Below the pieces are notes generated by a model. The model searched no databases. It worked only from the letters and a program-made list of their open reading frames with translations, and had not been told where the DNA came from. From Terriglobia bacterium (lineage in GTDB: Bacteria; Acidobacteriota; Terriglobia; Acidiferrales; UBA7541): DNA of 64,000 nucleotides. Made by a program: the position numbers and the translations under genes. Position 1 is the first letter of the stretch. Each line of letters begins with the position of its first letter. The DNA is taken from the NCBI GenBank assembly GCA_020072765.1, contig JAIQGD010000002.1, positions 4,796 through 68,795 on the forward strand, in the 5' to 3' direction. Of this stretch, positions 37,509 through 63,964 are shown piece after piece.

Positions 37509-40500
37509 CTATTGGCCGAGGCGGCGGCGAATTTCGGGAATCAGGGGATCCTCGGCGCTCTTGCCTCGGATGCGCAGATAGGCCTGGTACGGTTCGGCGA
37601 ATCCCGGACTCTTCAGCCCTTCGCGAACGCGCCCCTGGAAGTACTCGACGGGCGGAAAGAAGGCATAGGTCGGCACTTCGTCGAGAAAGAGCGCCAAGGC
37701 CTCCCCGCGCCTCTTGCTGCAACGGTCGAACTCGGAATCAGCTTCCGTGAAGGCTCCTGCTTCCAGATAGGCGCGGCCCAGATCGAAGCGTCCGATCCAG
37801 GTATCCAACAGGCTGTTCGCTTCGGTGAAGTCCTTAATTGCTTCGCTGCGCTCACCTCGCTGGAGGGCTGCGTCTCCGGCAATAATCTTGGCATAGGCCT
37901 GAGGCTCGGGCAGGATTTCAGAGGCGAGGCCGGCAGCCAGCTTTTGCGCTTTGGCCGTCTCTCCCACCTCGACAAAAGTGCGCGCCGCCAGGAATCGGAT
38001 CTTCACCGTCTGACTCGTCGCCAGCGCTCGGTCCGAGGCGGCGGCCGCCGCCGGCTTGTCTCGCCGTAACAGATGCGTGTAGGCCATTTCCGCCAGCTTG
38101 TCGGCGGCACTGTCGCGGCGGTTGGCCGCCAGGTCCGCTGCCACCCCCTTCTCCAGGATTCCGATGGCGTCGGCAAAGTGCCCCTCGTACACCGCCAGGT
38201 CGGCCCTTCCGGAGGAGGCCCGCGAAGCACCCATCGCGCTCATGCTCCCGAGCTTCTGGTAGGTCGCCGCGGCTTCGGGCAACCTACCCTGCCCCACCTG
38301 GGCAAACGCGAGCGAGAGCTGGCCATATTCGTACGACGGGTTGAGCTGCTGGAGACGGCGGGCTTCGCGCTCGCCGCTCGCAAAATCTCCCGCGTAGGAT
38401 GAAAACAGGGCCAGATTGGTGACCCCCAACACATCGGCATGAATCTCGACGTCTTTCCGGGCTTCCTCCACCGCTTGAGGCCAATTCCGCAACTGGCTAT
38501 AACAAAGAGCCAGATTGGTGTGCACCGCGTTGTCGGCGGGGTATCGTTTGCCCAGCTCCCCGTATTCCTCGATGCACTTCTGCCAGCTGCCGCTTTCGAT
38601 GTAATACTCGCCGCGGGTGCGATACCGCTCGCGCTCCGACATGCGGTCGATATGTTGCAGAGCTAACTTGGCGTATTTCTCGGCTTCCGCGGGCCGGCCC
38701 AGATTGCCGTACGCGGCGGCCATGCCGGAATATGCGCGGGCGAAATTCGAATCCAATTCCACGGCCTTTGCAAACGAAGCCAAGGCCCCTTCCATGTCGC
38801 CGGCAAACTGCCGTTCCATGGCGATGCCGTACTGGTGCACCGCCTCGAGATTGCCGACGGTGAAACTGCCCTGCACGGCCGCCAATTGCGCGGACTCGGG
38901 CGTGGTGTCACCCATGGCCTTGCGGAGCGGGGCCACGAGTTTGGGAACGTCGAGCACGATGTCGTCCTTGTTCGCGGCGCTGATCCCCGCGGCGGCCAGG
39001 GTCTTGCCGGTGACGGCGTCGACGGCCTGCACGGACAACTGGTACCCACCGCCGCCGCTGGTCAGGGAGCCCGTCACGATCGCGTTGACGCCCTGGCTGA
39101 CCGCCACGAGCCGGGCCGACTGTTCATCGAGCGTGGTGGTCGGATGGGACAGCTTGCCGGCCAACTGGCGCGCCTCCCCGCGGCTGTAGGCGTTGACGAA
39201 ACTGGCGCCTTCCAGGGCGACGTTGAACATCGGTTCCAGGGTGCCGTCGAAGATGGGATCGCCCGTGTGATTGGTGAAATCCGCCACCAGAACGCTCACG
39301 GGGGCGTGGGACCCGGCCGGCTTGACCCCGCTTTTCAGGCGCCACGCAATTACCGCTCCCGTCAGCACCACGGCCAGCACCGCCGCAGCGGCCGCGGCGC
39401 CGCCCAGCGCCGCGCGGTTGCGCAGCGCGCGCCGGACCCAGCGCAGTCTCCCGGTGCGGATGGGCGCGGCGTCGCCGCTTTTCCACGCCTGCAGCGCGTC
39501 ATACAGCTCGCGGGCCGATTGGAAACGGTCCTGCGGCTCGATCTCCAGGCATTTCGCGACGATGTCGCTCAAATACGGCGGGACGCCCGGATCCAACTGC
39601 CGCACCGAAACGGCGCGCTCCCGCGTCCGCTTGAACATCGAGGCCATGGCCGTGTCGGCCTGGTAGGGAAGCACGCCCGTCAGAATTTCCTGAAAGATGA
39701 CGCCCAGCGTGAACAGATCCGAGCGCGCGTCCACATGCTCGCCCCGGACTTGCTCGGGCGACATGTATTCGGGCGTGCCGATCAGCGCCCCGGTCTGGGT
39801 CATCCCGCCCACTTCCAGCGACCGTGCGATTCCAAAATCCATCACCAGGGCCCGGCCCTGCTGGTCCAGCATGATGTTTTGCGGCTTCAGATCGCGGTGG
39901 ACCACTTCTTCAGCGTGCGCCGCCTCCAACGCCAGGCAGACCTGCTGGATGATTTCCACGGCGCGGTCGGAAGGCAGTTTGCCATCGCCCGTGAGCACGG
40001 ACTTCAGGTCGTGCCCCTCGATGAACTCCATGGTGATGAACTTCGTGCCTTCGGCTTCACCCAGGTCGAAAATGCGAATCACGTTGCGGTGCGTCACTTT
40101 GCGCGCCAGGATCAGTTCCTGCTTGAAGCGCTGCAAAATTTCCGGCCGCCCCGCCAGTTCCGGGCGAATCACCTTGAGCGCCACCAGGCGGTCGAGTTCG
40201 CGATCGCGCGCCTTGTACACCGCGCCCATGCCCCCTTCGCCCAGGGTGCTGAGGATTTCGTAGCGATTGCCGAGCACCGACCCCGGCTGAATCGAGGTGA
40301 ATACCACCGAGACGCCGCCGCCTTGCGCCAGCACGGGCGCCGACCACGCCGTCGGAATGGCCATGGAGGAGGCGTCGGATCCGTCGAGGGTTACATCGGA
40401 AGTGTGGTCCGGAGGAGTCCGCGGCGCGCCCTCAAGCGTGACGGCGCTGCTCCCCGCGGGGGGAGTCATTTCGGCCACCAGCGTTTCGGCGCTTCCGCCC

Positions 40501-40571
40501 AACGGCGCGCGGCATTTCGAGCAGTTCGCCGCTCCCAGCGGATTGCGCGTTTGGCAGTGAGGGCAATCCAT
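37509..40571 (-). CDS. zinc-ribbon / Ser-Thr protein kinase / TM / periplasmic domain / TPR-repeat protein
   Basis: Elements in order are MDCPHCQTRNPLGAANCSKCRAPL, the kinase motifs GEGGMGAVYKA, HRDLKPQNIML, DFGIAR and GTPEYMSPE, one TM segment (AVLAVVLTGAVIAW), and then about 550 aa of TPR-like repeats. Confidence 0.88.
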   Translation of the reverse strand: MDCPHCQTRNPLGAANCSKCRAPLGGSAETLVAEMTPPAGSSAVTLEGAPRTPPDHTSDVTLDGSDASSMAIPTAWSAPVLAQGGGVSVVFTSIQPGSVLGNRYEILSTLGEGGMGAVYKARDRELDRLVALKVIRPELAGRPEILQRFKQELILARKVTHRNVIRIFDLGEAEGTKFITMEFIEGHDLKSVLTGDGKLPSDRAVEIIQQVCLALEAAHAEEVVHRDLKPQNIMLDQQGRALVMDFGIARSLEVGGMTQTGALIGTPEYMSPEQVRGEHVDARSDLFTLGVIFQEILTGVLPYQADTAMASMFKRTRERAVSVRQLDPGVPPYLSDIVAKCLEIEPQDRFQSARELYDALQAWKSGDAAPIRTGRLRWVRRALRNRAALGGAAAAAAVLAVVLTGAVIAWRLKSGVKPAGSHAPVSVLVADFTNHTGDPIFDGTLEPMFNVALEGASFVNAYSRGEARQLAGKLSHPTTTLDEQSARLVAVSQGVNAIVTGSLTSGGGGYQLSVQAVDAVTGKTLAAAGISAANKDDIVLDVPKLVAPLRKAMGDTTPESAQLAAVQGSFTVGNLEAVHQYGIAMERQFAGDMEGALASFAKAVELDSNFARAYSGMAAAYGNLGRPAEAEKYAKLALQHIDRMSERERYRTRGEYYIESGSWQKCIEEYGELGKRYPADNAVHTNLALCYSQLRNWPQAVEEARKDVEIHADVLGVTNLALFSSYAGDFASGEREARRLQQLNPSYEYGQLSLAFAQVGQGRLPEAAATYQKLGSMSAMGASRASSGRADLAVYEGHFADAIGILEKGVAADLAANRRDSAADKLAEMAYTHLLRRDKPAAAAASDRALATSQTVKIRFLAARTFVEVGETAKAQKLAAGLASEILPEPQAYAKIIAGDAALQRGERSEAIKDFTEANSLLDTWIGRFDLGRAYLEAGAFTEADSEFDRCSKRRGEALALFLDEVPTYAFFPPVEYFQGRVREGLKSPGFAEPYQAYLRIRGKSAEDPLIPEIRRRLGQ

Positions 40572-40810: not shown

Positions 40811-41335
40811 CTAGCTGTCAGAGAATTTGGAGCGAACGATTTGCAGAATGCCTCGTAAGAGTGCCGTTGGCTCAGGTGGGCACCCTGATACTGTGTGATT
40901 CACAGGGACAATATTCGCCACGCGGCCCCGGCTCGCATAACTTGTGCCAAAGATGCCGCCACAGGCCCCGCAGTCTCCCACTGCCATAACAATCTTTGGA
41001 TCGGGCATGGCATCATAAGTGCGCCTCAGCGCTTCTTCCATGTTCACCGATACGGGCCCCGTTACCAGCAATAGGTCCGCATGACGCGGGCTGGCAACGA
41101 ACTTGACGCCTACTCCCTCCAGATTGTAGTAGGGATTATTGAGCGCCTGAATTTCCAGCTCGCACCCATTGCAGGAACCGGCATCGACGTGACGGAGGCA
41201 GAGCGCGCGGCCCAGGATATTCCGCAAGTCTTTCTGCAATGTTTCGATCACCACAGGCGCTTCTGTGGAAACTGGTGCAGGCTCCGTCAGTATTCCCGTG
41301 CGGAGCATAGTTGAAAGGGTATCAAACATAGTCAC
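40811..41335 (-). CDS. NuoB/HycG-type small subunit (4Fe-4S) of the group-4-hydrogenase-like complex
   Basis: Motifs are DAGSCNGCELE, VGDCGACGG and VSGCPPEP. Start is GTG 41335, or ATG 41329, which has a GAGG Shine-Dalgarno sequence. It follows the large-subunit stop after a 1-nt gap. Confidence 0.85.
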   Translation of the reverse strand: MTMFDTLSTMLRTGILTEPAPVSTEAPVVIETLQKDLRNILGRALCLRHVDAGSCNGCELEIQALNNPYYNLEGVGVKFVASPRHADLLLVTGPVSVNMEEALRRTYDAMPDPKIVMAVGDCGACGGIFGTSYASRGRVANIVPVNHTVSGCPPEPTALLRGILQIVRSKFSDS

Positions 41336-41336
41336 C

Positions 41337-42890
41337 TCATCCGTCGTGTCCGCTGTAGGACAGATTGAAGGATTTGTTAATCAAGGGGAAGTCGGGAACG
41401 ATGTTGCCGAGGACGGCATATTCGAGGAGCGGCCAATTCTGCCACGACGAGTCATGGGCGTGGCAGCGTCGTATGGCTCCGTCCGGGCCGGTTTCCAGAG
41501 CGATCATCACGGGACCGCGCCATCCTTCAATCAGGCCGACGCCAAGACGATCCGGTTCCGCAAGAGGAACCTCCGTCCGGATGGGACCAGACGAAACATC
41601 TTCGAGGAGCATTCGGCAAAGCTGCAGAGATTCGCCGATCTCACCGAACCGTACCTGCACGCGCGCGGCCACATCGCCGGATGTTTGCGTAACCAACGTT
41701 GCCTTCAGTCGATCGTAGGGCGCCCACGGATGGTCCACTCGTAGATCGCAGCAGACGTCCGAAGCGCGTCCGACCAAACCAATCGCTCCAAGCTTCGCGG
41801 CCAGATCCTTTTCCAAGCGACCCGCTTCACGGAAACGGTCCTGCAACCCGCCGTGCTCGTCATAAATCGAACGTAAATTCTTTACGTCCCGCTCCAGCGT
41901 CAAATACTGATCGAGAAGGGCCCGAGACGCGTGTTCCGGTAGATCGAGGGCTACGCCTCCGGGCAGTATGTAATCCATCAGGTAGCGTGCTCCGAAAGCG
42001 GCAACGTTGGTTCGCAGGAGGTCCTCTTTCAAGCGCGAGAATTGCGTGAGCCCAAAGGCGAAGCCCGCGTCGTTGCCCAGAGCGCCGAGATCGCCAAGAT
42101 GATTGGCCAATCGCTCATGCTCAAGCGCCAGCGCACGCAGGTTCGTGGCTCGAGGGGGACAGACGGTGCCCGCGATGGCTTCCAGCGCCGCGCAATAGGC
42201 CCAAGAAAAGGCGGCGGCGGAATCGCCCGAGAGACGTGCCGCCAGACGGTAACCGTCGTGCTGCCGCATCTCCTCAAATCGCTTGGCGATTCCTTTGTGT
42301 GTATAGCCGAGGCGTTCCTCCAGCCGCAGGACTTTTTCACCCACTACGGAGAAGCGAAAATTCCCCGGCTCGATGATGCCCGCGTGAACGGGGCCCACGG
42401 CAATCTCATGGACGCCATCGCCTTCTACCTGAAGAAACGGATAGGCTTCAGACACCACGGGATATTGCTGGGTACCGTCGACATCTCGCCTCAGCGGGAA
42501 TACCGTCTCGGGCCAGCCGCCATGGCGCAGCCAGCCGCGATTGTCCGGCTCCGTGCTCGCAACCCCCAGCAGGTCGTAAATCGCGCGCTCCATCCGCAGC
42601 GCACTGGGAAATTGGGACGCAAGACTTGGGTACGTGGGATTCGCAACGTCGCCCGGGTCGTGCTCTAACACCAGCACATCTTGTGGGAGAAGATAGGCGG
42701 CGTAGATGCGGAAGCGGCCGTCACGGCCACGATCATCCGCACCCCAGAGAGTGAGAAAGCGCCCGCCAGAGGCGCTCAACTCTTCGGCGGCCCGTCGCCA
42801 ACTCGCGGCATCTACCTTCACGCAGCGGCACGCTAAGTTGGACGGAAGCTGCCTAGTTGCTTGCGCGGGGAAATCGAAACTCATATGCAT
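41337..42890 (-). CDS. fused NuoC-NuoD / HycE-like large subunit lacking all [NiFe]-ligand cysteines
   Basis: VGPVHAGIIEPGNFRF and ERLGYTHKGIAKRFE are HycE/NuoD-like. The L1 motif position reads RLSGDSAAAF and the C-terminus reads NLSYSGHDG*, with no CxxC pairs. ATG 42890 overlaps the upstream TGA. Confidence 0.8.
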   Translation of the reverse strand: MHMSFDFPAQATRQLPSNLACRCVKVDAASWRRAAEELSASGGRFLTLWGADDRGRDGRFRIYAAYLLPQDVLVLEHDPGDVANPTYPSLASQFPSALRMERAIYDLLGVASTEPDNRGWLRHGGWPETVFPLRRDVDGTQQYPVVSEAYPFLQVEGDGVHEIAVGPVHAGIIEPGNFRFSVVGEKVLRLEERLGYTHKGIAKRFEEMRQHDGYRLAARLSGDSAAAFSWAYCAALEAIAGTVCPPRATNLRALALEHERLANHLGDLGALGNDAGFAFGLTQFSRLKEDLLRTNVAAFGARYLMDYILPGGVALDLPEHASRALLDQYLTLERDVKNLRSIYDEHGGLQDRFREAGRLEKDLAAKLGAIGLVGRASDVCCDLRVDHPWAPYDRLKATLVTQTSGDVAARVQVRFGEIGESLQLCRMLLEDVSSGPIRTEVPLAEPDRLGVGLIEGWRGPVMIALETGPDGAIRRCHAHDSSWQNWPLLEYAVLGNIVPDFPLINKSFNLSYSGHDG

Positions 42891-44341
42891 CACCCAATCA
42901 GGCGCGCGGCAGCGCGATACCACTCGGCAAGCGCCGGCGGCATGTAGAGTCCCAGCGTCAACACCATGGCAAGATGAACGAACACGGGCAGCAGGGCCGG
43001 AGAATGGGGCAAGGGAGGCGCGTCGCTCTCCCCGAAAACCATCGGCTGCACCCGGCTGAAAATTGCGGCAAACGCAACACCAAGAGCAATCAGGAGAAAA
43101 GGAGTGCTCCAGGGATGTTCCCTCATGGCGGTCGTAAGAATTAGAAATTCACTCGCAAAGACGCCAAATGGCGGCATACCCAGAATGGCGATCGATCCCA
43201 GCATGAGTCCCCAGCCAATGGTTGGGCTGATACCCAGCAGACCGCGAATTCCATCCATTTGCTGGGTGCCGGCAGTCTGCGAAGCATGTCCCGCGGTGAA
43301 GAAGATCGATGACTTCGTCAGGGAGTGGACGGTCATGTGCAGCAATGCCGCGAAATTGGCCACCGGCCCACCCAACCCGAATGCAAAGGTGATGATCCCC
43401 ATGTGCTCGATCGATGAGTATCCAAAGAGCCGTTTAATATCGCGCTGTCTCCATAGAAAGAACGCACCAAGCACCGCCGACAGCAGTCCAAACGTCATCA
43501 ACATATGGCCCGGAAGAGAACGGCCGACGGAGCCCTCAACCAGTACCTTGCAACGAATGACGGCGTAGAGCGCAACGTTCAGAAGAAGGCCGGAGAGGAC
43601 AGCCGATACCGGCGTCGGGCCTTCGGCATGTGCGTCGGGAAGCCAATTGTGCAGGGGCGCAAGACCAACCTTGGTGCCGTATCCCACCAGAAGAAAGACG
43701 AACGCAAGTCCTAACACCCTCGGTTCAAGTTGGCCTTTAACAGCATTGAGGTGCGTCCACAGCAGTGCGGTCATGCCCTCGCGCCCAAGAGTCTGTTCCG
43801 CGGCGAAATATAGCAAGATAGTTCCAAACAGGGCTTGGGCAATGCCAACGCCACACAGAATGAAGTACTTCCAGGCTGCTTCCAAGCTGGCCCGCGTACG
43901 GTACAGCGACACCAGCAACACGGTGGACAGCGTGGCGGCCTCCATGGCGACCCACAACAGGCCCATGTTGTTGGTGAGTAGCGCCAGCAGCATGGCCCCC
44001 ATAAAGAGTTGGTACATACTGTGGTAGAGGCGCAGGCGCCCCGGAGTGACGCGTCCGAGGTGTTCTTCAATGCGCATGTAAGGGCGGGAAAAGAGCGCCG
44101 TAGTGAAGCCCACGAAAGCGGTCAGCCCTACGAGAAACACGTTGAACGAATCAACGAAGAATTGCTCGTGCCCGACCAGCATGGGACCGTGCCGGATAAC
44201 TCGCAGGACCAACAGTGAGGAGACGATCAGGGTGGCCAGGCTCATGGCGGCATTGAGTTCGGCGGCGAAGCGACGTGCGCCGAACAGGGCCAATAAGACG
44301 GACCCGAGCAGCGGCAAGCCTAGTACCAGCAAGATTTCCAC
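42890..44341 (-). CDS. HyfF-like antiporter-type subunit (NuoM/N family)
   Basis: GTG 44341 is preceded by AAGGAGG. The product is a polytopic protein of about 483 aa with WVAMEAATLSTVLLV, KYFILCGVG, LHNWLPDAHAEGPTPVSA and SSIEHMG. Confidence 0.8.
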   Translation of the reverse strand: MEILLVLGLPLLGSVLLALFGARRFAAELNAAMSLATLIVSSLLVLRVIRHGPMLVGHEQFFVDSFNVFLVGLTAFVGFTTALFSRPYMRIEEHLGRVTPGRLRLYHSMYQLFMGAMLLALLTNNMGLLWVAMEAATLSTVLLVSLYRTRASLEAAWKYFILCGVGIAQALFGTILLYFAAEQTLGREGMTALLWTHLNAVKGQLEPRVLGLAFVFLLVGYGTKVGLAPLHNWLPDAHAEGPTPVSAVLSGLLLNVALYAVIRCKVLVEGSVGRSLPGHMLMTFGLLSAVLGAFFLWRQRDIKRLFGYSSIEHMGIITFAFGLGGPVANFAALLHMTVHSLTKSSIFFTAGHASQTAGTQQMDGIRGLLGISPTIGWGLMLGSIAILGMPPFGVFASEFLILTTAMREHPWSTPFLLIALGVAFAAIFSRVQPMVFGESDAPPLPHSPALLPVFVHLAMVLTLGLYMPPALAEWYRAAARLIG

Positions 44342-44342
44342 T

Positions 44343-45008
44343 TCAGTCCTCCTTGAGCGATTCCAGGTGATGCAGATCGAGGCTGTCGAACTGCTCACGG
44401 ATCTGGAAGAAAAAGATGCCGAGAATGAACACGCCAACCAGCAAGTCCAGTGCGATGCCCAGTTCGATCACCATCGGCATGCCGTAGGTCGCGCTCGTTG
44501 CGGCGAAAAACAGGCCGTTCTCCATAGCGAGAAATCCAATGACCTGCGTGATCGCTTTGCGGCGGGTAATCATCATTAGAAACGCCAGCAGGATCACGGC
44601 GAGGGCGATACCGAGCGTGTGGCGCGTGATGGTGGTGGCCAGCATGCTGATTGGTTGCGCCAAGCCGAAAGCGAAGATCACGAGCACGAGTCCTACGAGC
44701 ATGGTCGCGGGGATATTGACGAGCGGTTCACTGTCCCATTGCGCGCCGAGCTGATAGATCAGCCGATGGAGAATCCAAGGCAGCGCGATAACCTTTAGCA
44801 TCAGAGTGAGAGCTGCCGAATAGTAGATTTCCGATAGCCCGGAACTGTGGGCCACCAGACACGTCGAGAGAAAGAGGATGGCGCCCTGCCAGGCTAAGAG
44901 CGTAATCAACCGTTGCGTGCGGCGCCGCGAGAGCATGGCGAAGGAGATGAGCAACAAGCCTGCGGCGAGAACGTTGAGAACCTGCGCGATCAGATGAGAT
45001 GTAGGCAT
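44343..45008 (-). CDS. HyfE-like small membrane subunit (NuoK-related)
   Basis: The 221-aa hydrophobic ORF contains ...VIGFLAMENGLFFAA..., as in hydrogenase-4 component E. Confidence 0.7.
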   Translation of the reverse strand: MPTSHLIAQVLNVLAAGLLLISFAMLSRRRTQRLITLLAWQGAILFLSTCLVAHSSGLSEIYYSAALTLMLKVIALPWILHRLIYQLGAQWDSEPLVNIPATMLVGLVLVIFAFGLAQPISMLATTITRHTLGIALAVILLAFLMMITRRKAITQVIGFLAMENGLFFAATSATYGMPMVIELGIALDLLVGVFILGIFFFQIREQFDSLDLHHLESLKED

Positions 45009-45013
45009 TTTGG

Positions 45014-45967
45014 TTAGGCCCTCAGTAGAAGATGAACCAGCAAGCCAAGGACAGCGATCAAGAATGCCATCGCCAGGTATTCAGGAGCGCGAAAGATACG
45101 CAGCTTGGCCGACAGTGATTCGACGAACGCCAACGCCGCTCCAGCGAGCGCGAGTTTCCCAATCAATGCGGCAAATGCCAGGAACAGCGGCAGACCCCCA
45201 TCCTGGCCATGGGTTGCAATGCCCCAGGGAAGAAACAACGCGAATCCAATGCAGGCGTAGTTGAAGAGCTTCAGGCTCGATGCCCACTCCACCAAGGCGA
45301 GGTGCCGGGCCGAGTATTCGAGCAGCATCGCTTCGTGAATCATCGTGAGTTCGAGATGAGTCGCCGGATTGTCGATCGGGAGGCGGGCATTTTCGGCCAG
45401 CAGTACCATCAAGAATGCGACGGCTGCAAAGATCACACTGGGATCGACGGCGGCTCGATGCGCGGCGTATCCGTCGACCAGATCTGGCAACGCAGTACTT
45501 CCGAAGACCAGAAAAGCATTGAACAGCACCATCAGCAACGCCGGTTCCGCCAGGAAGCCAACCATCATCTCGCGCCGAGCTCCCATCGTGCCGAAGGCCG
45601 TGCCGATATCCATGGCCGCCAGCGACTGGAACACGCGCGCCGTGGCAAAAAGGCCGATCAGCGCGATCGCGTCGGCCACCCGCGCGAGCGGCAGGTCGGT
45701 CACCAGCGAAGGGATAATGGCCGCCGCCAGCGCCATCGCCCCAAATAGCACGTAGGGCGTTGCCCGAAAGAGCGCCGATGCATCCATGGCGAGCGCCGCA
45801 TCTTTGTGGAAGAGCTTGTCCAACATTCGATACGGCTGTAGCAACGGCGGTGCGGAGCGATTCTGCAGCCAGGCGCGACATTGTGCGATCCATCCGGAAA
45901 ACAGCGGAGCGATCGCGATGGCCAGCACTACTTCCGCGAGTTGGCGAATGAATGTGATTCCGCTCAT
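45014..45967 (-). CDS. HyfC/HycD-like membrane subunit (NuoH family)
   Basis: ATG 45967 overlaps the upstream TGA (ATGA). The sequence contains LLQPY..L.KLF.K..., GTMGARREMMVGFLAEPAL and EAMLLEYS. Confidence 0.8.
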   Translation of the reverse strand: MSGITFIRQLAEVVLAIAIAPLFSGWIAQCRAWLQNRSAPPLLQPYRMLDKLFHKDAALAMDASALFRATPYVLFGAMALAAAIIPSLVTDLPLARVADAIALIGLFATARVFQSLAAMDIGTAFGTMGARREMMVGFLAEPALLMVLFNAFLVFGSTALPDLVDGYAAHRAAVDPSVIFAAVAFLMVLLAENARLPIDNPATHLELTMIHEAMLLEYSARHLALVEWASSLKLFNYACIGFALFLPWGIATHGQDGGLPLFLAFAALIGKLALAGAALAFVESLSAKLRIFRAPEYLAMAFLIAVLGLLVHLLLRA

Positions 45968-48000
45968 AGGAGAACAAATATCAGTAAAGCAATGAGAGTC
46001 AGAAAGCTGTAGAGCAGATAGATCGACAGCCGTCCACTCTGCACAACTCCAATCGCATCCGCAAGCCGCTGCACTCCGCGCGCAATCGGAAGATAAATCC
46101 CCCGCCACAGACGATCTTCAATGTGAATTCTGTAGCGCGGGGCACGATCGGTGGGCGACGGCAAATCGCGCTCCATACGGAAAAAACCTCCGAACATGTG
46201 CCGGATCGGCTGGCCAAACCCCTCCGCCGTATCCTGCATGCGCGAGGTCTGCCACGGATAACCGCAATCCCAGGTCGCCGTTCGGCGCACGCGTCCGTGG
46301 GCCAAAAAACGCACGAGCACGAAGGCGACACCCACCACACCGACAATTCCAAGCAGTAATATCAGACCGCTGTAGGAGGCCTGGCCCGACGCAATCGGGG
46401 CAATCCACCAAACGGTGGCACTGGGTCTGACACTCTCGCCCAGTAACGTGCCGGTGACCGCTGCCGCCGATCTCAGTGCGAGTTGTGGCAGCACTCCGAT
46501 CACGATGCATCCCAAAGCCAGCCAACCAAGGCCCAGGCGTTCGAGCCAGTTGGCATCACGGGCGTTTGCCAGCGAAGCTTCCCGCGGCTGCCCGAGAAAA
46601 ATCACGCCATAGAACTTCACCATCACGTAGGCCGCAAGAGCAACGGTCAACGCGAGCGCTGCCGCGCCGAGCGGGATCAGCATGTTGAGGAAGGCATGGG
46701 GAAGCTGCGGAGTGAATAGAAACGACTGTAACAACAGCCATTCGGAAACGAAACCGTTGAGTGGCGGCAAGCCCGCAATGGACAGTGTGCCGACCAGCGC
46801 CAGGGTCGCCACCCAGGGCATATGACGAATCAGGCCGCCGAGCTTACCAAGGCTACGCTGTTTCGTGGCGTGTAGGACGGAACCAGTGGCGAGAAAAAGC
46901 AAGCTCTTGAACAGTGCGTGATTCAGGGCGTGGACTAAGGCCGCGGTGAAAGCGAGAGCCGCAAACAATCGCAAGCCGCTTGTCTCAAACAGAATCGCGA
47001 GACCGATCCCTGTAAAGATCACTCCGATATTTTCAATCGAGGAGTACGCCAGGAGGCGTTTCATGTCCGTCTGTACTGCCGCAAAGATTGCCCCGTAGAG
47101 GGCCGAGAACAGACCGAGCGCAAGCAGCAGCGCGCCCCACCACCATAGCCGGACGTGCAGCAGGTCGAAACTGATTCGCAGCATTCCATAGATTGCCGTC
47201 TTGAGCATCAGCCCGCTCATCATTGCCGACACCGGCGATGGTGCTGCAGGATGAGCTTCCGGCAACCATACGTGTAACGGAACCAGACCCGCTTTCGCTC
47301 CAAAACCCAATAGCGCAAGCAGGAACGCGGTGGTTGCCCAGAACGGTGTCAGGGAAGCGCCGCGCATCGCGTCGAATGTGAACTGCCAACTGCCACCCTG
47401 GAGCACTCCGAAGCTCAGCAGGATGCAGATGGCGCCTACGTGGGCCATGATGAGATAAAGGAATCCAGCGCGACGGATGTCAGGAATACGGTGCTGGGAG
47501 GTCACCAAAAAGTACGAACTCAGCGCCATCGTTTCCCACGCCACCATGAACAGGTAGGCATCGTCGGCGAGTATCACCACTGCCATGCTGGCGAGGAATA
47601 CGTGATATTGCAGGCCCAGCAAGGCAGGCGCCGTGCCTTCGCCCGATCGAAAGTAACCGGCCGCAAATGTCGAGATGCCGGCCCCTGCTACTCCCACCAA
47701 CAATAAGAAGAAGGCCGACAATGCATCCAGGCGAATGTGGAAGGGTAGATCGGGAAGACCCAGTGGAAGGACCAGAACCTGTGCGGTCCCGCCTGCAGCA
47801 AGGAACATTCCTGCCAGAACAGCAACACTGAAAGCCACCAAAGCCCCCAGCAGAAAAAGCAGACGCTCAAGACGTATGCTGTGGAGACCGAGCAAACCCG
47901 CGAGGCCCAGGACAACCCAAATGGTTACGAGGATCAGCAGGAACCGGAGATCGTGGACCATCAAAGCCGATCCTGCGCCTAATATTTTAATGATGAGCAC
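45964..48000 (-). CDS. HyfB/HycC-like antiporter-type subunit (NuoL family)
   Basis: The 678-aa polytopic ORF contains WETMALSSYFLV, PLHVWLPEAHPAAPSPVSA and YSSIENIG. Start is GTG 48000 or ATG 47961. Confidence 0.8.
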   Translation of the reverse strand: MLIIKILGAGSALMVHDLRFLLILVTIWVVLGLAGLLGLHSIRLERLLFLLGALVAFSVAVLAGMFLAAGGTAQVLVLPLGLPDLPFHIRLDALSAFFLLLVGVAGAGISTFAAGYFRSGEGTAPALLGLQYHVFLASMAVVILADDAYLFMVAWETMALSSYFLVTSQHRIPDIRRAGFLYLIMAHVGAICILLSFGVLQGGSWQFTFDAMRGASLTPFWATTAFLLALLGFGAKAGLVPLHVWLPEAHPAAPSPVSAMMSGLMLKTAIYGMLRISFDLLHVRLWWWGALLLALGLFSALYGAIFAAVQTDMKRLLAYSSIENIGVIFTGIGLAILFETSGLRLFAALAFTAALVHALNHALFKSLLFLATGSVLHATKQRSLGKLGGLIRHMPWVATLALVGTLSIAGLPPLNGFVSEWLLLQSFLFTPQLPHAFLNMLIPLGAAALALTVALAAYVMVKFYGVIFLGQPREASLANARDANWLERLGLGWLALGCIVIGVLPQLALRSAAAVTGTLLGESVRPSATVWWIAPIASGQASYSGLILLLGIVGVVGVAFVLVRFLAHGRVRRTATWDCGYPWQTSRMQDTAEGFGQPIRHMFGGFFRMERDLPSPTDRAPRYRIHIEDRLWRGIYLPIARGVQRLADAIGVVQSGRLSIYLLYSFLTLIALLIFVLL

Positions 48001-48091
48001 TGGATGATCAACCTCAGTCTGCAGCTAAGAATGCGCAATGCAAGTCACGGCCGCTAATTACGGAGCCTCGCAAGTCAGATGCCCCGGAACA

Positions 48092-48484
48092 TCACTTCTC
48101 CGGCTCTACGGAGCGATTATCCATTTCATCCAGCAACTCCAGTGACTCCTTCAGATGTTTTTGGAAATAGCGACGCATCAGGGCAAGAACCTTGTTGATG
48201 ATCGGGTCACGAACGGAATAGAAGACTTGGTTCCCGACCTTGCGGTTCACAACCAGCCGGTTGGACCTGAGTACGGTCAAGTGTTGGGAGACATTGGCTT
48301 GTTCCATGCCGAGCTTTCCGATGAGTTCGCCCGCCGAGAGTTCACCGCCCCCTAGCAGTTCAATGATCGCGATCCGTGTGGGGTGTGCGAGCGCTTGAAA
48401 GATATCGGCCTTAAAGCGGCGCAGCAAGTCGGGCGTAGAGTTCACTCTAGTCAATTGGAATATTCGATTCTTCGCATATATCAT
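48092..48484 (-). CDS. ArsR/SmtB-family transcriptional regulator (no cysteine residues)
   Basis: The sequence FQALAHPTRIAIIELLGGGELSAGELIGKLGMEQANVSQHLTVLRSNRLV is a winged HTH. There is no Cys anywhere in the 130 aa. It lies 91 nt upstream of the hyfB-like gene on the same strand. Confidence 0.85.
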   Translation of the reverse strand: MIYAKNRIFQLTRVNSTPDLLRRFKADIFQALAHPTRIAIIELLGGGELSAGELIGKLGMEQANVSQHLTVLRSNRLVVNRKVGNQVFYSVRDPIINKVLALMRRYFQKHLKESLELLDEMDNRSVEPEK

Positions 48485-49493
48485 ATCACGGTATCGAAGG
48501 AAGCAGAGAGCAAGACAGACTTGGCTGAATCCGTCGACAAGCTAGATCGCTGATCGGGAATAGACCGAGGCACTGGAACACCCAAAATGTCGGCAACGCA
48601 TCTACCGGGTTTCTGTGCGAAGGGTACGCAGAAGGTACACGGAAAATCTGAGGCCTGCAACTTGCTGAAGAAAGACCGTAGAAATGGTGGAGGCGGGGGG
48701 AGTCGCACTACGGCGGTTCGTTGAAACTACGCAAGTCACTCACTTTAGGTTACTCCCAATACGCCAGAAACGCCGAAACTGCCGGTCGGGGGTAGACGGC
48801 GGGTACACGCAGTCGCTGAAAACATTGGGAGCACCGACGCAGAAAGACCGACCTATCTGCCCGTTAAGAAACCGCCGAATTGTCGAGCGATAGACGATAA
48901 AAATGGCTTCCGAGAACATACAAGCGAGATATGCACCCGCCATCCACGAGCGTACCTAGTTTTGAGCAATTGTCAACCCGTCTCAGGGCTCTCAGCTAAC
49001 GTCGGCAAATCCGCAAATTAGCGATTTCCTCCGGTTTTCCAGTTCTTGATCGTCAAAGAGGGTTAGTCCCGGGAACTGCCATTTTCGGGTAGCTCCACCA
49101 GACTCCCACGCGGCCTCGTTTCCAGGTTCCAATACTGCTTCCATGTAAGAAGGGCGCTTTGGACGGCGGGGGCCTCATCATGGAAGCCCAAAAACGGTGC
49201 AGGATTGAACGACACGAGGTAGTTTTGTTCGAATGTACGCGCTCTTCGTTCGTTTTGCGCTAGGTTGAGTGACACTTTAGTGACCGTGGCCGCTTTCCGA
49301 CTCCGGGCGCACATGCATGTAAGAAGCTCACCTCAAGAGCCGTCCGGGTACTAGAAGTTCTTAGAATCTATCTACCAACAATTGTTAATTGGCAGGATCA
49401 GTACTTGCATAGACGGGACCCTCTGATGTATCTATAGTTCTGGTACTTCTGGAACGAATCTTCGCACATCGCGCCAGATGATGAGGGATCCCT

Positions 49494-50180
49494 ATGGGGA
49501 GCAAGACCAAAGTTTTCATAGCTTCCTCCAATCGTCTGCTGAGGGAATCAATCGTGCGAATCTTGGCCAAGAGGACCGACTTTGAGATCGTTGGGGCACA
49601 AGCGATTTGCTCCACAACCCGTAATGAAATCGTTGACTCAGGCGCCGGCACATTTGTCCTCGATTCGCTGGAGTTCTTTCTCAATGCTCCCATCTTGTCC
49701 TCTGAAACCGGGGTCCGGAACCGTTTGGCCAAGAGTGTTCTGGTCGCCATGGACGATAGCCCCGACGACTTCCTGATGGCTATCCGACACGGCGCGTTCG
49801 GGTATGTACTACAGGAAGCATCGGCGCTTGACGTTGTGTCGGCGATTCGAACGGTGGCGGAAGGAGAGGCTGTGTGTCCGCCTCGCTACGTTCGAGTTCT
49901 TTTCGACCACGTCGCCAAGCAGGCTGCCGAGTTTCCAAGCAGCCGGAAGCGCATGCAGACAGGCCTAACGCGCCGCGAACAGCAACTGGTTCCCCTGATC
50001 GGGCGCGGGCTCAGCAATAAGGAAATCGCCAGCCACTTCGGGCTGTCGGAGCAGACGGTGAAGAATCACATCCATCGGATCCTCCGCAAAGTGGGTGCCT
50101 CGGATCGTTTAAGTGTGTCCGAAGCCTGCCAGATTACAAGACTCGGTTGGAGTACCAAGAGTACCGCAGACGCAGTTTAG
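49494..50180 (+). CDS. LuxR/NarL-type regulator with degenerate receiver domain
   Basis: The C-terminal HTH reads LTRREQQLVPLIGRGLSNKEIASHFGLSEQTVKNHIHRILRKVG. The N-terminal receiver-like fold has SS in place of the acidic DD pair (VFIASSNRLL) and Q in place of the conserved Lys (GYVLQEAS). Confidence 0.8.
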   Translation: MGSKTKVFIASSNRLLRESIVRILAKRTDFEIVGAQAICSTTRNEIVDSGAGTFVLDSLEFFLNAPILSSETGVRNRLAKSVLVAMDDSPDDFLMAIRHGAFGYVLQEASALDVVSAIRTVAEGEAVCPPRYVRVLFDHVAKQAAEFPSSRKRMQTGLTRREQQLVPLIGRGLSNKEIASHFGLSEQTVKNHIHRILRKVGASDRLSVSEACQITRLGWSTKSTADAV

Positions 50181-50337
50181 GTACGATTCCGTCGCTCGTA
50201 CTTGAAAGTACCCAGTACGAAGGTCAGCTTGGTACCTGACCAGGCAACTAATTCCTCGCCTCATTCCTTGGAACCAAATTGAACCTGTCGCTACGGCATC
50301 GTTTTGTCGGATACTCGCGCTCGCGAGGGAGGATTAT

Positions 50338-50715
50338 ATGAAACCCATCCGAGTCCTGGTCGCAAACCGCCCGCGCCTGATGCGCGAACTGGTGATGGCC
50401 ACGATTTCCGACCAGTCGGACATTGAAATTGTGGGTGAAATTCATGAGGAATCTGAAATCGCCAGCGCCGTGGAACAAACCCAGCCGGACTTCCTCATCG
50501 TGGCGCTGGAACAGCACGATCGGCTGCCCGAGTTCTGCCAGTCGATTCTGCAGAGCCACCCTCAGGTCAAGATCATCGCGATCGCTCCGGACCGGAACAG
50601 CAGCGTGTTTTATTGGGCTTCACTCCGAGTGCAATCGAATCAGATCGAGGCATCCGAGGCGGGCGTGCTGAGCGCGCTGCGTGGCAAGAGTCGCCCGGTG
50701 GCGAGGATCCAATGA
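50338..50715 (+). CDS. stand-alone pseudo-receiver (CheY-like fold without phospho-acceptor Asp)
   Basis: IRVLVANRPRLMRE has NR in place of DD, and PDFLIVALEQ has Ala where the phospho-acceptor Asp is expected. Its stop overlaps the exporter ATG (ATGA at 50712-50715). Confidence 0.65.
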   Translation: MKPIRVLVANRPRLMRELVMATISDQSDIEIVGEIHEESEIASAVEQTQPDFLIVALEQHDRLPEFCQSILQSHPQVKIIAIAPDRNSSVFYWASLRVQSNQIEASEAGVLSALRGKSRPVARIQ

Positions 50716-53700
50716 ACAGAAAGAGATTCACCATTCCGGCCCGCTTCGGTGCCCGAACAGGGAAGAAAGCGCTTCGCATTGGGCCCATTCTGACGCTCGC
50801 GCTGCTCTGTGGCGGCGCAGTCGGGGCGCAGAATCAGCGCCCCGCCCCCCTGGCGGTCTCCGAGCTGGGCCAGAAAAACATGAGTCTGGTGGCGGCATCG
50901 CCGGCCGACATCAAGGCGGTGCTGGTGAAGGATGCCGGGCTGATGGTGGAACTGAAGCACTGGGTCGCCAAGGAAGCCACCGATCAGGGACAGATCATCA
51001 GCGAATCGGATTTGACCAACGGCGCCATCTTCGACCGGCTGGAGACCGATGTGCAGTTTCGGTCGGTCGCGACGCTGTTGCTCCAGCGCTACGGCTATCT
51101 GGTTCCCAAGGTGAATCCCGATTCCGCGCTCGGTAAAGAACAAGAGTTATTGGTTCAAGAGCGCGCCAAGTGGCTCGCACAAGATCAGGAGGAAAGGCTC
51201 ACGGCTGCACGGCAGCGGACTTCCCAGAACATAGAGAATACGGGGGGGTGCGACCCACGCCTGAGTGTCGATTGCAACGCTTCGCAAGTGCCTTCCTCTC
51301 CGGCAGAAGGGCCTGGCCAACGACTTCAACCAGGAATGCCACCTTCCCGGACCTCTCCCAACGACACGAACCCGCCGAACCTTCAACAGGGAGGCGGAAG
51401 GCCGCTGGAGCGCGCCCAGCTAATGCAAAGCGACGACCAACTTCCTAACGCCTATTCCCAGGTTTCCCTCGGGACAGCCGATGGCTCCAGGCAATCGCCG
51501 GAAAACCTCGGAGTGAATCCCTTCGGGCCGCTTACCCCTCAGGCGGGGGCAAACAGCACGGGCGATGAGTTCGGTTCATTTCTGGGTGCAGCCAACTCGC
51601 AGGGTCTGAATTCAGCGGAGAACCCCGCGATGAATGGGATGCCTTTAGCCGGGGCAGGCAGCCGAACGCCAGACATGGGCCGCATGAGCCCAGCGAGTGC
51701 TGGCGGGGCGGACTTCTCCCTGGCTGCGGGCGTTTCGCCGTTTTCGCCGATGCAGCGGCTGAATCCGCGATATGGAAATCAAACGCTCCTGCAGCCGGTG
51801 GAAATGACGCGCGCGCCCAACCCTTACAGCGACATTCCGTCGCTGTACGACATGTACCTGCAGGCGACGCCTCATCCGAGTACGCCAACCCGATTCGGGA
51901 TGAATATCTTCGAGAATGGGACGCGGGACTCGCAATTGATTCCCATGGATCTGCCCGCCGGGCCCGACTACGTGGTGGGACCGGGCGATGGGCTGGCCAT
52001 CAATCTATGGGGCGGCGTTTCTCAACGGCTGTACCGCACCGTGGACCGAGAGGGCCGCGTGAGCCTCCCCGAGGTCGGACCACTGCTCGTGAGCGGAAAG
52101 AGTCTCGGGGACGTGCAGCAGAGTTTGCAGCAGGTTCTGCGGACGCAATTCCGTGATGTGTCCGCGGATGTCTCACTCGCCCGCTTGCGAACCATTCGAG
52201 TCTACGTGGTCGGCGACGTCACGAATCCGGGTGCGTATGACATCAGCTCCCTTTCGACACCTCTCAATGCGCTCTTTACCGCCGGCGGACCGACGCCGCG
52301 AGGATCGCTGCGGATTGTGAAGCACTATCGCGGCAATCAATTGGTGCAGGTTGTGGACCTGTATGACCTGCTGCTCCACGGCGTGAAGTCCGACATCCAG
52401 CGCCTCGATAATGGCGATACGGTGCAGGTGCCGCCCATCGGGCCGCAAGTGACTGTGGAAGGAATGGTTCGCCGCCCGGCAATTTACGAGCTGAAAGACG
52501 AGAAGGATATGGCCAATGTTCTCGATCTCGCGGGCGGGCTTCTTCCTACCGCTGCATTGCACCATATCGAAGTTCAACGCACGGTCTCCCACGAAAAGGA
52601 AACGATGGTCGGCCTCGACATCCCGGATGGGGGAGATGCTTCTGAGGTGACGCAGAAACTCGCATCGTTCGAGATTCACGACGGAGACCATATCCGGCTG
52701 TTCCCGATCGCGCCGTACAACCAGAACGCCGTGTACGTCGAGGGCCACGTGATCCGGCCGGGCCGGTACTCCTATCGTGCCGACATGCGGGTAACCGATT
52801 TGATCTCATCCTACAAGGATTTACTGCCGGAACCGGCGACTCAGTATGCCGAGATCATCCGCTTGAACGCGCCCGATTTTCACCCCAGTGTGGAGGGGTT
52901 CGATGTGGCGGAAGCGTTTGCCGATCCTGCTCATGCGCCGATTCTCAAACCCATGGATACCGTCCGGATCTTCAGCCGTTACAACTTTGAGAATCCGCCC
53001 ACGGTTTCGGTGTGGGGCGACGTGCGCGGGCCAGGGACGTACCGGACATCGGGACAAATTCACCTGAGCGATGCGGTCCACTTGGCCGGAGGACTCTCTC
53101 CGGACGCGCAGACCGGAGACGCGCAGGTGTTCCGCTATTTAGCGGATGGCAAGCTGAAGATCTTCAGTGTCAGTCTAAGCCAGGCGCTGGCAGGAGATCC
53201 GGCCGAGAACATTCTTCTCGCTTCGCGGGACCGTGTCCTGATTCACCGAAATCCGGACGCCGAGCAACCCGCGACGGTCTACGTCCAAGGCGAAGTGGGA
53301 AAGCCCGGCCGCTACCCGCTGACGACGAACATGACGGTCGCGGATTTGATCCGTGTTGGAGGCGGCCTCAAGCCCAGCGCCGACACACAGGTCGGAGACT
53401 TAACCATCTATCAATGGGCGAACGAAGCAAAGCTGAGCGGAAAACATGAGCCGATAGAGATTGCCGCGGCATTGAGCGGCGATCCGAAGGCCAACGCCCC
53501 CGTTCACAACGGGGACGTATTGACGATCCGGCAGCTTCCGGGCTGGAACGACCTGGGCGCTTCGATCAGTGTTAAGGGTGAGGTCAAGCATCCGGGAACC
53601 TACGGCATTCGGCCGGGAGAGCGGCTGAGCTCTGTTTTGGAGCGAGCCGGCGGCTTCCAGCCCAGTGCTTATCCATACGCAGCGGTCTTGCAACGAGTGC

Positions 53701-54311: not shown

Positions 54312-54320
54312 CGGGGAATC

Positions 54321-56831: not shown

Positions 56832-57061
56832 AAAGTATTTCAGCTGTAGGCGGGACATCAGTGAGGGCCGCTTGATACGAGACTTAGGAGTGTTCGAGAG
56901 TTGAAGCCGAAGACATCCAATCCGAGACTGATACCGACGGGCCAGCCGAATCATTCGAGCGCGGCGACGCTTGTGGTGGTTATTTGTCCTGTGCGCGATG
57001 AACTTTTCCAGGGTTTGGCCATGAATGTGGCGCCAAGTGTGTTTCTGATCGGGGGCCGACC

Positions 57062-58456: not shown

Positions 58457-58579
58457 ATTCGGCGCCTCCGTCTATAACGTATTCTTGATAAACGGGTTAG
58501 GTCACAAAGTGCCCTGTAAGTGACGGGGCGGAGCCATCTCCGCCCCTGTCGAAGAGCGAAGAGTAAGGAGCGGGACGCA

Positions 58580-59137: not shown

Positions 59138-59147
59138 CCAATTATTC

Positions 59148-60065: not shown

Positions 60066-60160
60066 TGCACGAAACACTAGCTTACGGCATGGTTAAGACA
60101 CGCTCCTCGTGTCGCGTTCACCCGTTGTGAAGAAGATTCGAACAAGGGCCGAGAGGGGCT

Positions 60161-63956: not shown

Positions 63957-63964
63957 GAGGTTCG

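Follow-up and report, generated by a model that had tools for sequence, protein, structure and literature searches.

What does a complex built like a group 4 hydrogenase become once its [NiFe] site is gone, and is it still a working machine? The question is raised by six tightly coupled genes on the minus strand (40811-47961) of the stretch of DNA analysed here (the window, 64,000 nucleotides (nt) of Terriglobia bacterium, GCA_020072765.1, contig JAIQGD010000002.1, positions 4,796-68,795). We find that these genes, in the order ehrA-B-C-D-L-S, together with an Rv0081-type ArsR regulator, very probably form an intact, selection-maintained member of the Ehr (Ech/energy-converting-hydrogenase-related) family, which is neither a hydrogenase nor a canonical quinone-reducing complex I. 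The Ehr class is very common and long known, and the operon is a further member of a known, biochemically uncharacterised family, a finding that will not surprise a specialist. What the window adds is the orthology to Rv0081-87 of Mycobacterium tuberculosis including a Cys-free regulator, a remodelled pocket under selection, and a six-gene module that is mobile.

The Ni-free large subunit and its partner subunits

Among all PDB chains, EhrL matched HycE best (7Z0S_E, E=3e-58), followed by MbhL (6e-29), Nqo4 of T. thermophilus (9e-28) and MbsL (1.8e-16), and the HMMER alignment with HycE runs from end to end. RVCGICGFAH of HycE and RMCGICSFSH of MbhL align over RLSGDSAAAF of EhrL, and DPCYSC lies over NLSYSG close to the C terminus. 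The four [NiFe] ligand positions are therefore occupied by Ser221, Ser224, Ser511 and Gly514, just as the initial annotation of this DNA had proposed, and the agreement of two separate alignments, with HycE and with MbhL, leaves no ligand Cys that could have been misaligned. Because the four positions are encoded by ordinary sense codons (TCG, TCC, TCC and GGA) and the stop follows three residues after the motif, selenocysteine read-through is excluded. EhrL does contain Cys residues (C21, C23, C233, C244, C381, C382, C424 and C476), none of which is conserved, and hyp maturation genes were found neither among the window open reading frames (ORFs) scanned nor in the flanks of related loci. With all four Cys ligands missing in the alignment, the complex is not a [NiFe] hydrogenase. 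The AlphaFold2 model of EhrL (pLDDT 90.4, pTM 0.93), whose sole low-confidence segment is the beta1-beta2 loop (residues 167-175), again retrieved HycE first in Foldseek (TM-scores 0.93/0.91, root-mean-square deviation 2.2 A) and E. coli NuoCD second (0.85/0.75).

The operon does not encode a complex I either, as had also been suggested. Complex I/NDH-1 and Ehr have the NuoB, C, D, H and L/M/N modules and the N2-type cluster in common. However, in a pairwise alignment with Nqo4 (2FUG_4, residue numbers counted from this alignment) the quinone ligands Tyr87 and His38 are replaced by Gly222 and Ile173, all NCBIfam NuoD and NuoB scores of the window proteins fall under their cutoffs, and NuoA, NuoJ, NuoI, NuoE, NuoF and NuoG are absent from the operon. 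NuoE/F/G-like genes occur in the window only within a formate dehydrogenase (FDH) cluster, at 10.8-13.6 kb. The identification of EhrC with NuoK was also considered and dropped: hhalign against an approximate E. coli NuoK sequence gave no significant match, and neither phmmer nor a profile search found an EhrC homologue in the PDB. Since sequence and profile searches gave nothing, the one source for an EhrC-NuoK link is the literature (PMC13645896).

The reading of the locus as a six-gene minus-strand operon of the hyf type was borne out by Pfam and NCBIfam assignments and by an independent gene caller, which made the same six calls on an ENA metagenome contig encoding an identical large subunit. 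The order corresponds to hyfB-C-E-F-G-I, that is, hyf minus A, D and H. EhrA scored 868 bits against NF005086, 'hydrogenase 4 subunit B' (cutoff 667), and matched HycC (7Z0S_C, E=2.3e-64) including the C-terminal region that contacts HycD. EhrD scored 851 bits against NF005045, 'hydrogenase 4 subunit F' (cutoff 543), with MbsH as its best PDB match (E=2e-33) and MbhH at E=9e-27. EhrS matched MbhJ (E=3.9e-35) and HycG (E=3.1e-31), and its CxxC...C...CPP set aligns with both; the expectation that the small subunit had kept its 4Fe-4S ligands thus held. The tight coupling of the genes was likewise found as described, with an ATGA overlap at 45964-45967, a TGATG overlap at 42888-42892 and other gaps of 5, 1 and 1-7 nt, EhrS having an alternative GTG start at 41335.

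No NuoE/F/G-type input subunit is encoded in the operon. The absence of HycF/HyfH- and HyfA-like genes, too, stood up to scrutiny: a scan of all six frames of 40811-48484 for the ferredoxin-type motif CxxCxxCxxxC was empty, and the six genes fill the operon, which rules out a hidden ferredoxin-type gene inside it.

Conservation was counted over 59-80 homologues per subunit. The cluster ligands C53, C56, C120 and C150 of EhrS are invariant (75/75). In the membrane subunits, the invariant residues include E143 of transmembrane helix (TM) 5, K223 (TM7) and K352 (TM12) of EhrA, whose K254 (TM8) is found in 55/59; the acidic chain E192, D199, E206, E212, E217 and E227 of EhrB; and E134, K224 and K343 of EhrD. 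The membrane carboxylates E163, E182 and D188 of EhrC are near-invariant. EhrD is the most conserved subunit, with a mean identity of 0.70 as compared with 0.51 for EhrL. At residue 255 of EhrD, the TM8 Lys position of antiporter-like subunits, we observed Asn in 70/70 homologues, whereas EhrA, MbhH and MbsH have Lys.

Within EhrL, the best-conserved stretch is the beta1-beta2 loop, in which G166, P167, H169, A170, G171, I173 and E174 are present in 80/80 homologues and P175 and G176 in 79/80. The former Ni pocket is similarly constrained (G222 and D223, 80/80; S221, 70/80; S/T224, 78/80), as are D274 and R458 of the pocket (both 80/80) and the C-terminal remnant (S511, 71/80; Y512, 79/80; G514, 78/80; D516, 79/80). 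Asp223 is a gain, for the relatives that retain all four ligand cysteines (CCCC) have V, A, I or S at this position. Judged from these alignments, the pocket has been remodelled and conserved instead of decaying. The ratio of nonsynonymous to synonymous substitution rates (dN/dS) against four relatives lies between 0.03 and 0.21 in all six genes; because dS is saturated, these values are to be read as upper-bound-like indications. By these sequence comparisons the operon is intact and under purifying selection, and it is no relic.

The Ehr family and its known relatives

Ehr complexes are defined as group-4-hydrogenase-like complexes without CxxC motifs (PMC6349859, PMC10284858, PMC3569383). 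They were first described in Geobacter, with a NuoL-like EhrA, a HyfE-like EhrC, EhrL and EhrS (PMC7894505, PMC3569383, PMC13194489), and later in Margulisbacteria and Saganbacteria (PMC6349859), in comammox and other Nitrospira with about half of the Nitrospirales genomes (PMC10284858, PMC12342949), and in ammonia-oxidising archaea (PMC10432482); an EHR complex has been named in M. tuberculosis (PMC6728331). The function of Ehr is stated to be unknown in each of these papers (for example PMC12342949, PMC10284858), and we found no biochemical characterisation in the papers searched, up to 2025-26, in agreement with the initial annotation. Its assignment of the locus to the Ehr class also fits: the large subunit is group-4-like and Cys-less, the NuoB-type small subunit keeps the proximal [4Fe-4S] ligands, and the EhrA/B/C/D membrane set stands in one operon with EhrL and EhrS, as seen by Pfam, by NCBIfam and in 80 loci, giving the subunit set described for Geobacter (PMC7894505). 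The neighbouring classes each lack a defining part here. A group 4 [NiFe] hydrogenase would have the four Cys ligands and a NuoI/HycF-type 2x[4Fe-4S] subunit, and a complex I the two Nqo4 quinone ligands together with NuoA, J, K, I and, in NADH-dependent forms, also E, F and G. An Mrp antiporter would comprise MrpA-G without NuoB/D-type proteins; in the window NuoB/C/D/H-type proteins are present and MrpB, E, F and G are missing, EhrA and EhrD matching MrpA and MrpD.

We then placed EhrL among its relatives, of which there are 6183 among 1.84 billion cluster representatives, 914 of them below 1e-30. Among 94 full-length representatives at 50% identity, counting the window protein, about 70 are Cys-less and 17 keep CCCC; the Cys-less ones have the motifs [SA]-G-D-[STEN] and S-Y-[SA]-G-x-D in common. 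A neighbour-joining (NJ) tree of the 94 with fragments of HycE, MbhL and Nqo4, a rough tree without bootstrap, put the window protein inside a single Cys-less clade, beside the CCCC hydrogenases and apart from HycE, MbhL and Nqo4. A grouping with bona fide NuoD, which would have spoken against Ehr, was thus not obtained in this rough tree.

At least 597 GTDB species genomes have matches, and the synteny and neighbour results refer to the best 80 of these loci. They come from Acidobacteriaceae/Granulicella (68-71% identity), Rhodanobacter, Steroidobacter, Paraburkholderia, Burkholderia, Thiomonas, Thiobacillus, Gallionella, Acidithiobacillus, Methylobacter, Mariprofundus and Nitrospirota, and they span Acidobacteriaceae, Beta-, Gamma-, Alpha- and Zetaproteobacteria and Nitrospirota. 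The order A-B-C-D-L-S holds for the genes present in 80/80 loci, those at contig ends holding part of the operon. The nearest named relatives are proteins of Acidobacteriia/Terriglobia metagenome-assembled genomes annotated as 'NADH-quinone oxidoreductase subunit C' or 'Ni,Fe-hydrogenase III large subunit'. With thousands of metagenomic proteins besides, Ehr is among the most widespread uncharacterised relatives of complex I, and to assign it a role would fill a gap in bioenergetics.

The six-gene operon is also found on plasmids and chromids of Cupriavidus, Paraburkholderia, Burkholderia, Variovorax and Rhizobium rhizogenes, and 86 plasmid records cover at least 80% of EhrL. Since the six-gene module moves alone, it should work with universal cell partners. 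In two plasmid copies looked at individually, R. rhizogenes pC5.7b and P. aromaticivorans pBN1, a small helix-turn-helix (HTH) regulator or a divergent YoaK gene lies upstream, the divergent YoaK-family gene occurring in both, and a universal stress protein gene lies downstream in pBN1. PGAP labels these plasmid operons 'hydrogenase 4 subunit B/F', 'formate hydrogenlyase' and 'NADH-quinone oxidoreductase subunit C/B/H', and because of such names the family is hidden in public annotation. No general conserved partner gene emerged from 638 clustered flanking ORFs of the 80 loci or from Pfam searches of 56 upstream neighbours. Immediately upstream, SulP-family genes were seen in 5/56, XRE-type HTH genes in 5/56 and ArsR genes in 2/56, response regulators being a generic family, and a beta-carbonic-anhydrase-like ORF lies downstream of the operon in 2 loci.

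Three genomes carry, immediately upstream of the main operon, another Cys-less Ehr-type cluster that is more distant (Methylibium and Aquabacterium, L018:1-2926 and L054:1-3506; Nitrospirota, L062:1-4400). Both tandem clusters of L062 belong to the plain type. The additional cluster of L018 and L054 is a paralogous subtype: its large subunit ends in ...SYCGNDL, and a 2x[4Fe-4S] ferredoxin-like domain (CxxxCxxCxxxC ... CxxCxxCxxxCP) is fused to the N terminus of its small subunit. Because this sister subtype carries the fused 2x[4Fe-4S] domain, electron transfer is likely part of the function of the wider Ehr family.

The full gene content is matched by the locus of M. tuberculosis known as 'hyc', the predicted formate hydrogenlyase or EHR complex Rv0081-Rv0087 (PMC6728331). 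We compared the proteins directly with those of an M. tuberculosis-complex contig, which was reached via Rv0081, and found a one-to-one counterpart for all seven window proteins, regulator included (identities in Table 1). Rv0087 has the same Cys-less motifs with the invariant Asp (RISGDTSAAH and NKSFNQSYAGNDL), and the regulator is a Cys-free ArsR in both. The small-subunit gene, however, comes first in M. tuberculosis (ArsR-S-A-B-C-D-L) and last in the window (ArsR-A-B-C-D-L-S). The M. tuberculosis locus runs on into Rv0088 (polyketide cyclase-like) and adjoins DosR-regulon genes, neither of which is in the window, and regulation by hypoxia, DosR and MprA is known for M. tuberculosis only. 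In another M. tuberculosis-complex contig (Logan SRR7851365) we observed a natural deletion in which Rv0084-Rv0087 are missing, the locus reading Rv0081, Rv0082, Rv0083, a 74-aa (amino acid) Rv0084 stub and then Rv0088.

Geobacter sulfurreducens Ehr consists, in the accounts that cite Coppi 2005 (PMC7894505, PMC13194489), of ehrA-1, ehrA-2, ehrB, ehrC, ehrD, ehrL and ehrS (GSU0739-0745). Compared by published description only, its gene order ehrABCDLS is that of the window operon, and it likewise has a NuoL-like EhrA, a HyfE-like EhrC, EhrL and EhrS, no NiFe site and no ferredoxin-type subunit. Geobacter has two ehrA genes and seven genes in all, whereas the window has six, and it is an anaerobe, whereas the window host is probably an aerobic soil acidobacterium.

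With Hyf (FHL-2) of the E. coli/Pectobacterium formate hydrogenlyases the window shares the gene order given above, and HycE, HycC and HycD of Hyc (FHL-1; 7Z0S) are the best solved-structure matches of EhrL, EhrA and EhrB. Unlike Hyf and Hyc, the window complex lacks the [NiFe] ligands, HyfA, HyfH, HycB, HycF, HyfD and the FdhF partner, as well as, at the end of EhrL, the C-terminal extension for maturation by a protease; the TM7 Lys absent from HycC is retained in EhrA. Nearer in sequence are the CCCC group 4 hydrogenases, which have 34-39% identity to EhrL, the same NuoC-NuoD fusion and the sister position in the NJ tree; the nearest of them belong to group 4f (PMC10284858). They share with EhrL an NKSF(E/N)L-x-Y-x-x-x-D ending without extension, and they keep RxCGxCxxxH and CYxC where the Ehr clade has S-G-D-S/T and S-Y-S/A-G. 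A parallel is offered by MBS of Pyrococcus furiosus (formerly MBX; 6U8Y), the one characterised non-hydrogenase derived from a hydrogenase, which has lost hydrogenase chemistry and kept the pump, as in Ehr. Two of the four Cys persist in MBS, which reduces polysulfide and includes NuoI-like and Mrp-type subunits. Its match to EhrL is weak (MbsL, as given above), and it has extra subunits that Ehr lacks.

Possible mechanisms

What the complex does can be approached from its parts. We tentatively propose a stripped-down redox-linked ion translocator with one cluster, fed by a dissociable donor, and regard this as plausible if somewhat short of an even chance. A low-potential donor, for which ferredoxin, flavodoxin or an unlinked dehydrogenase module are candidates, would dock where HycF/NuoI normally sit and pass electrons straight to the one N2-type [4Fe-4S] cluster, that of EhrS. 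The former Ni-Fe pocket at the EhrL/EhrS/EhrB junction, remodelled but still highly polar, would then handle the electron or charge change; it would comprise S221-G-D223-S/T, the conserved beta1-beta2 loop GPVHAGIIEPGxFRF with H169 and E174, and D274, R458 and Y512. Here a membrane acceptor might be reduced, in the simplest case a quinone with a non-canonical binding mode, or a proton-loading site might be switched. This would drive, or in reverse be driven by, H+/Na+ movement via EhrB, EhrC, EhrD and EhrA, and expression would probably be autoregulated by ArsR, as for Rv0081. The redox activity, the donor, the acceptor, and the identity and direction of the ion are what we infer here. Taken as a whole, Ehr identity together with this mechanism is the best overall explanation we have, one that comes close to evenly balanced.

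Several points weigh against such a translocator. There is no electron-input subunit in the operon and no conserved partner gene in 56-57 flanks. The canonical quinone ligands (Nqo4 Tyr87 and His38) are missing in EhrL, and an acceptor site cannot be named. A redox metal, moreover, would be poorly coordinated by Ser, Gly and Asp. That conservation peaks in the membrane subunit EhrD and not in EhrL would fit a mainly transporting function as well, and the beta1-beta2 loop that figures in the proposed pocket is the segment of the EhrL model with low confidence. The literature, for its part, gives the function of Ehr as 'unknown' (PMC12342949, PMC10284858).

It is possible, with more reserve than for the translocator itself, that the pocket, now free of Ni, serves as a new active or ion-loading site and is not a scar, and that Ehr is a further functional class of complex-I-type machine. 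The site would then include the gained Asp223 between the former Cys positions, beside Glu174, Asp274, Arg458 and Tyr512 and next to one [4Fe-4S] cluster. If so, Ehr would stand alongside the hydrogenases, the quinone reductases and the sulfur-reducing MBS, with one cluster and a directly docking donor, and in abundant soil Acidobacteria it would serve energy or redox homeostasis when O2 or energy is limiting, much as its orthologue is tied into the hypoxic response of M. tuberculosis. Its role bears on how hydrogenases became respiratory complexes and might explain the hypoxia-regulated operon of the tubercle bacillus. The residues singled out by the analysis are D223 and E174 of EhrL and C53 and C56 of EhrS.

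Of the other explanations, the one that survives best, unlikely as we consider it, is a redox-independent ion transporter, either an Mrp-like cation/proton antiporter or a device driven by the proton motive force (CO2 hydration/pH homeostasis, Cup- or DAB-like), in which EhrL/EhrS would cap the complex in a structural or regulatory role, with the Fe-S cluster acting either structurally or as a redox/O2 sensor. The missing input module, the lack of recognisable substrate ligands and the position of the antiporter-like EhrD as the most conserved subunit all suit it, as do the SulP-family gene directly upstream in 5/56 loci, the beta-carbonic-anhydrase-like ORF downstream in 2, and the hypoxia-linked regulatory context in M. 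tuberculosis (bioRxiv 10.1101/465575, PMC6177252). However, the invariant cluster Cys, the beta1-beta2 coupling loop and the pocket residues exceed what a cap needs, the fused 2x[4Fe-4S] domain of the sister subtype implies electron flow, and the operon has no carbonic-anhydrase-like or Cup/DabA-like subunit. The SulP loci, moreover, represent few independent events because they belong to closely related Betaproteobacteria.

An FDH-Ehr supercomplex is improbable, clearly more so than the transporter. It would have Ehr as the membrane module, a separate FDH with NuoE/F/G-like parts docking on EhrS, and ion-pumping formate oxidation without H2. Such a supercomplex has been proposed for Margulisbacteria and Saganbacteria (PMC6349859), Ehr subunits were most abundant in formate-grown Geobacter (PMC7894505), and in the window itself (8772-13561) there is a probable selenocysteine FDH that includes a NuoE-F fusion and an Fe-S module resembling NuoG. 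These FDH genes, however, lie 27 kb away on the opposite strand, and because a NAD-type diaphorase of its own is present the FDH is self-sufficient. In neither the 80 loci nor the two plasmid loci, moreover, is an FDH gene a conserved neighbour, and the Rv0081-88 locus of M. tuberculosis contains none.

That the operon is a non-functional relic, a hydrogenase drifting after loss of its active site as asserted for Geobacter KN400 (PMC13194489), is very improbable. All four catalytic Cys are indeed lost and no activity is known, but the dN/dS values effectively refute a relic, the reading frames are intact and translationally coupled, the same synteny recurs across phyla and on plasmids, invariant residues number in the dozens in every subunit, the gained Asp in the old active site among them, and most of the 94 representatives fall in the Cys-less clade. 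The purifying selection and the specifically remodelled pocket argue against the 'dead hydrogenase' view that is still in the literature. Weakest of all, and hardly credible, is a true hydrogenase with misaligned or selenocysteine-encoded Cys or with other residues as ligands, for which one could cite the match of Pfam NiFeSe_Hases to the M. tuberculosis orthologue and the mere ~35-39% identity of the closest CCCC relatives, and which fails on the Ser, Ser, Ser, Gly found in both alignments, the four sense codons with a stop three residues on, the unconserved Cys of EhrL and the lack of hyp genes among the window ORFs scanned.

The regulator, the formate dehydrogenase and other window genes

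The ArsR/SmtB-type gene precedes ehrA by about 130 nt on the same strand, and its ORF contains no Cys, as the initial annotation had remarked. Alignment with two Acidobacteriaceae loci (L005 and L006) points to a GTG at 48445 as the probable true start (117 aa) instead of 48484. Its best PDB match is M. tuberculosis Rv0081 (6JMI, E=3.4e-17; next match, 4e-12). With its ArsR/SmtB fold, its lack of Cys and its place at the head of an ehr-type operon, it is of the Rv0081 type. Rv0081 is a Cys-free, metal-independent autorepressor of rv0081-rv0088 (bioRxiv 10.1101/465575). A candidate operator or promoter box lies at 48460-48479, and its right palindrome arm TCGAATATT is kept upstream of arsR in two other Acidobacteriaceae loci. 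At its own thresholds the repeat tool reported no inverted repeats upstream of arsR or ehrA, the box coming from the manual alignment only.

Downstream of ehrS, at a distance of 240 nt and on the same strand, is a gene for a Ser/Thr protein kinase with TPR repeats (1020 aa, 37509-40571, -). In hypoxia, Ser phosphorylation reportedly regulates Rv0081 (bioRxiv 10.1101/465575). A link between kinase and ArsR is speculative, the kinase being no conserved neighbour in related loci.

Table 1. Features of the ehr locus and of the formate dehydrogenase genes in the window, with identities to the M. tuberculosis-complex proteins.
Feature	Coordinates	Strand	Length and basis	M. tuberculosis counterpart (identity)
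ArsR/SmtB-type regulator, Cys-free, Rv0081-like	48092-48484	-	longest ORF 130 aa; PF01022, PF12840	Rv0081 (42%)
Candidate operator/promoter box, imperfect palindrome ATATGCGA-AGAA-TCGAATAT	48460-48479	-	MAFFT alignment of upstream regions and palindrome scan	
EhrA, HyfB/HycC/NuoL-like antiporter-like subunit	45964-47961	-	665 aa; longest ORF extends to 48000; PF00361	Rv0083 (37%)
EhrB, HycD/HyfC/NuoH-like membrane anchor	45014-45967	-	317 aa; PF00146; HycD 7Z0S_D E=1.2e-36	Rv0084 (42%)
EhrC, HyfE-like small membrane subunit	44343-45008	-	221 aa; NF008556 'hydrogenase 4 membrane subunit' E=1.2e-25, under cutoff	Rv0085 (34%)
EhrD, HyfF/NuoM/N-like antiporter-like subunit	42890-44341	-	483 aa, GTG start	Rv0086 (37%)
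EhrL, fused NuoC-NuoD/HycE-type large subunit without [NiFe] ligands	41337-42890	-	517 aa; PF00329 and PF00346	Rv0087 (41%)
N-terminal Ni-motif remnant RLSGDSAAAF, expected RxCGxCxxxH	42207-42236	-	alignment with HycE and MbhL	
C-terminal Ni-motif remnant NLSYSGHDG-stop, expected DPCxxC	41340-41366	-	alignment with HycE	
EhrS, NuoB/HycG/MbhJ-type small subunit, one [4Fe-4S] ligand set	40811-41329	-	172 aa; PF01058	Rv0082 (44%)
FDH catalytic Mo-pterin subunit	~8772-10760	+	Fdh-alpha TIGR01591 positions 47-672	
FDH NuoE-NuoF fusion	10761/10824-12638	+		
FDH third gene	12734-13561	+	2Fe-2S domain, two 4Fe-4S domains, Molybdop_Fe4S4 domain	

The operon has a G+C content of 0.588, as compared with 0.64 for bases 1-37000 and 0.57 for 48500-64000. 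The remark that it is lower in G+C than the left half of the window is true, but this is a property of the whole right half and no mark of an island; as the operon matches that half, a 'low-G+C island' was rejected. Promoter and terminator scans gave nothing better than shuffles, and Rfam and tRNA scans of the whole window were empty.

The FDH at 8772-13561 (+) is of the NAD type, split and permuted in order: the Molybdop_Fe4S4 domain of the third gene corresponds to Fdh-alpha positions 1-49, which normally stand at the start of the catalytic subunit. The sole ferredoxin-type motifs of the window are in these genes. Because an in-frame TGA (9108-9110, +) stands at the exact catalytic Sec/Cys position (...NNIDSCNRT-U-HAPSVVGL...), the FDH is probably a selenoprotein. 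It had looked truncated because ORF lists split the gene at the TGA; a truncated or permuted pseudogene was rejected, since the TGA at the catalytic position restores the frame. A hairpin at 9113-9152 (+), starting 14 nt downstream of the TGA, has a 7-bp stem and an apical loop GGUCU, with an energy no better than that of shuffles (z=-0.45). The FDH genes are followed directly by an ORF for an OYE/NamA-type flavin oxidoreductase (13730-15715, +), of which about 288 N-terminal residues match no family; this ORF is probably over-long, with its true start near 14590.

Four further long ORFs have no Pfam match at E<=1e-5, namely 32414-37219 (+, 1601 aa), 20307-23090 (-, 927 aa), 1207-2985 (-, 592 aa) and 3807-5465 (+, 552 aa). 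Some of these may be spurious in G+C-rich sequence; the 1601-aa ORF was also called on the ENA contig. The right flank (49494-63956, +) holds a polysaccharide/capsule export cluster with genes for a LuxR/GerE regulator, a 1232-aa Poly_export/SLBB (Wza-like) protein, a PAP2-Wzi fusion, a Wzz/GNVR protein, a methyltransferase, a Wzy_C ligase and a UDP-glucose dehydrogenase.

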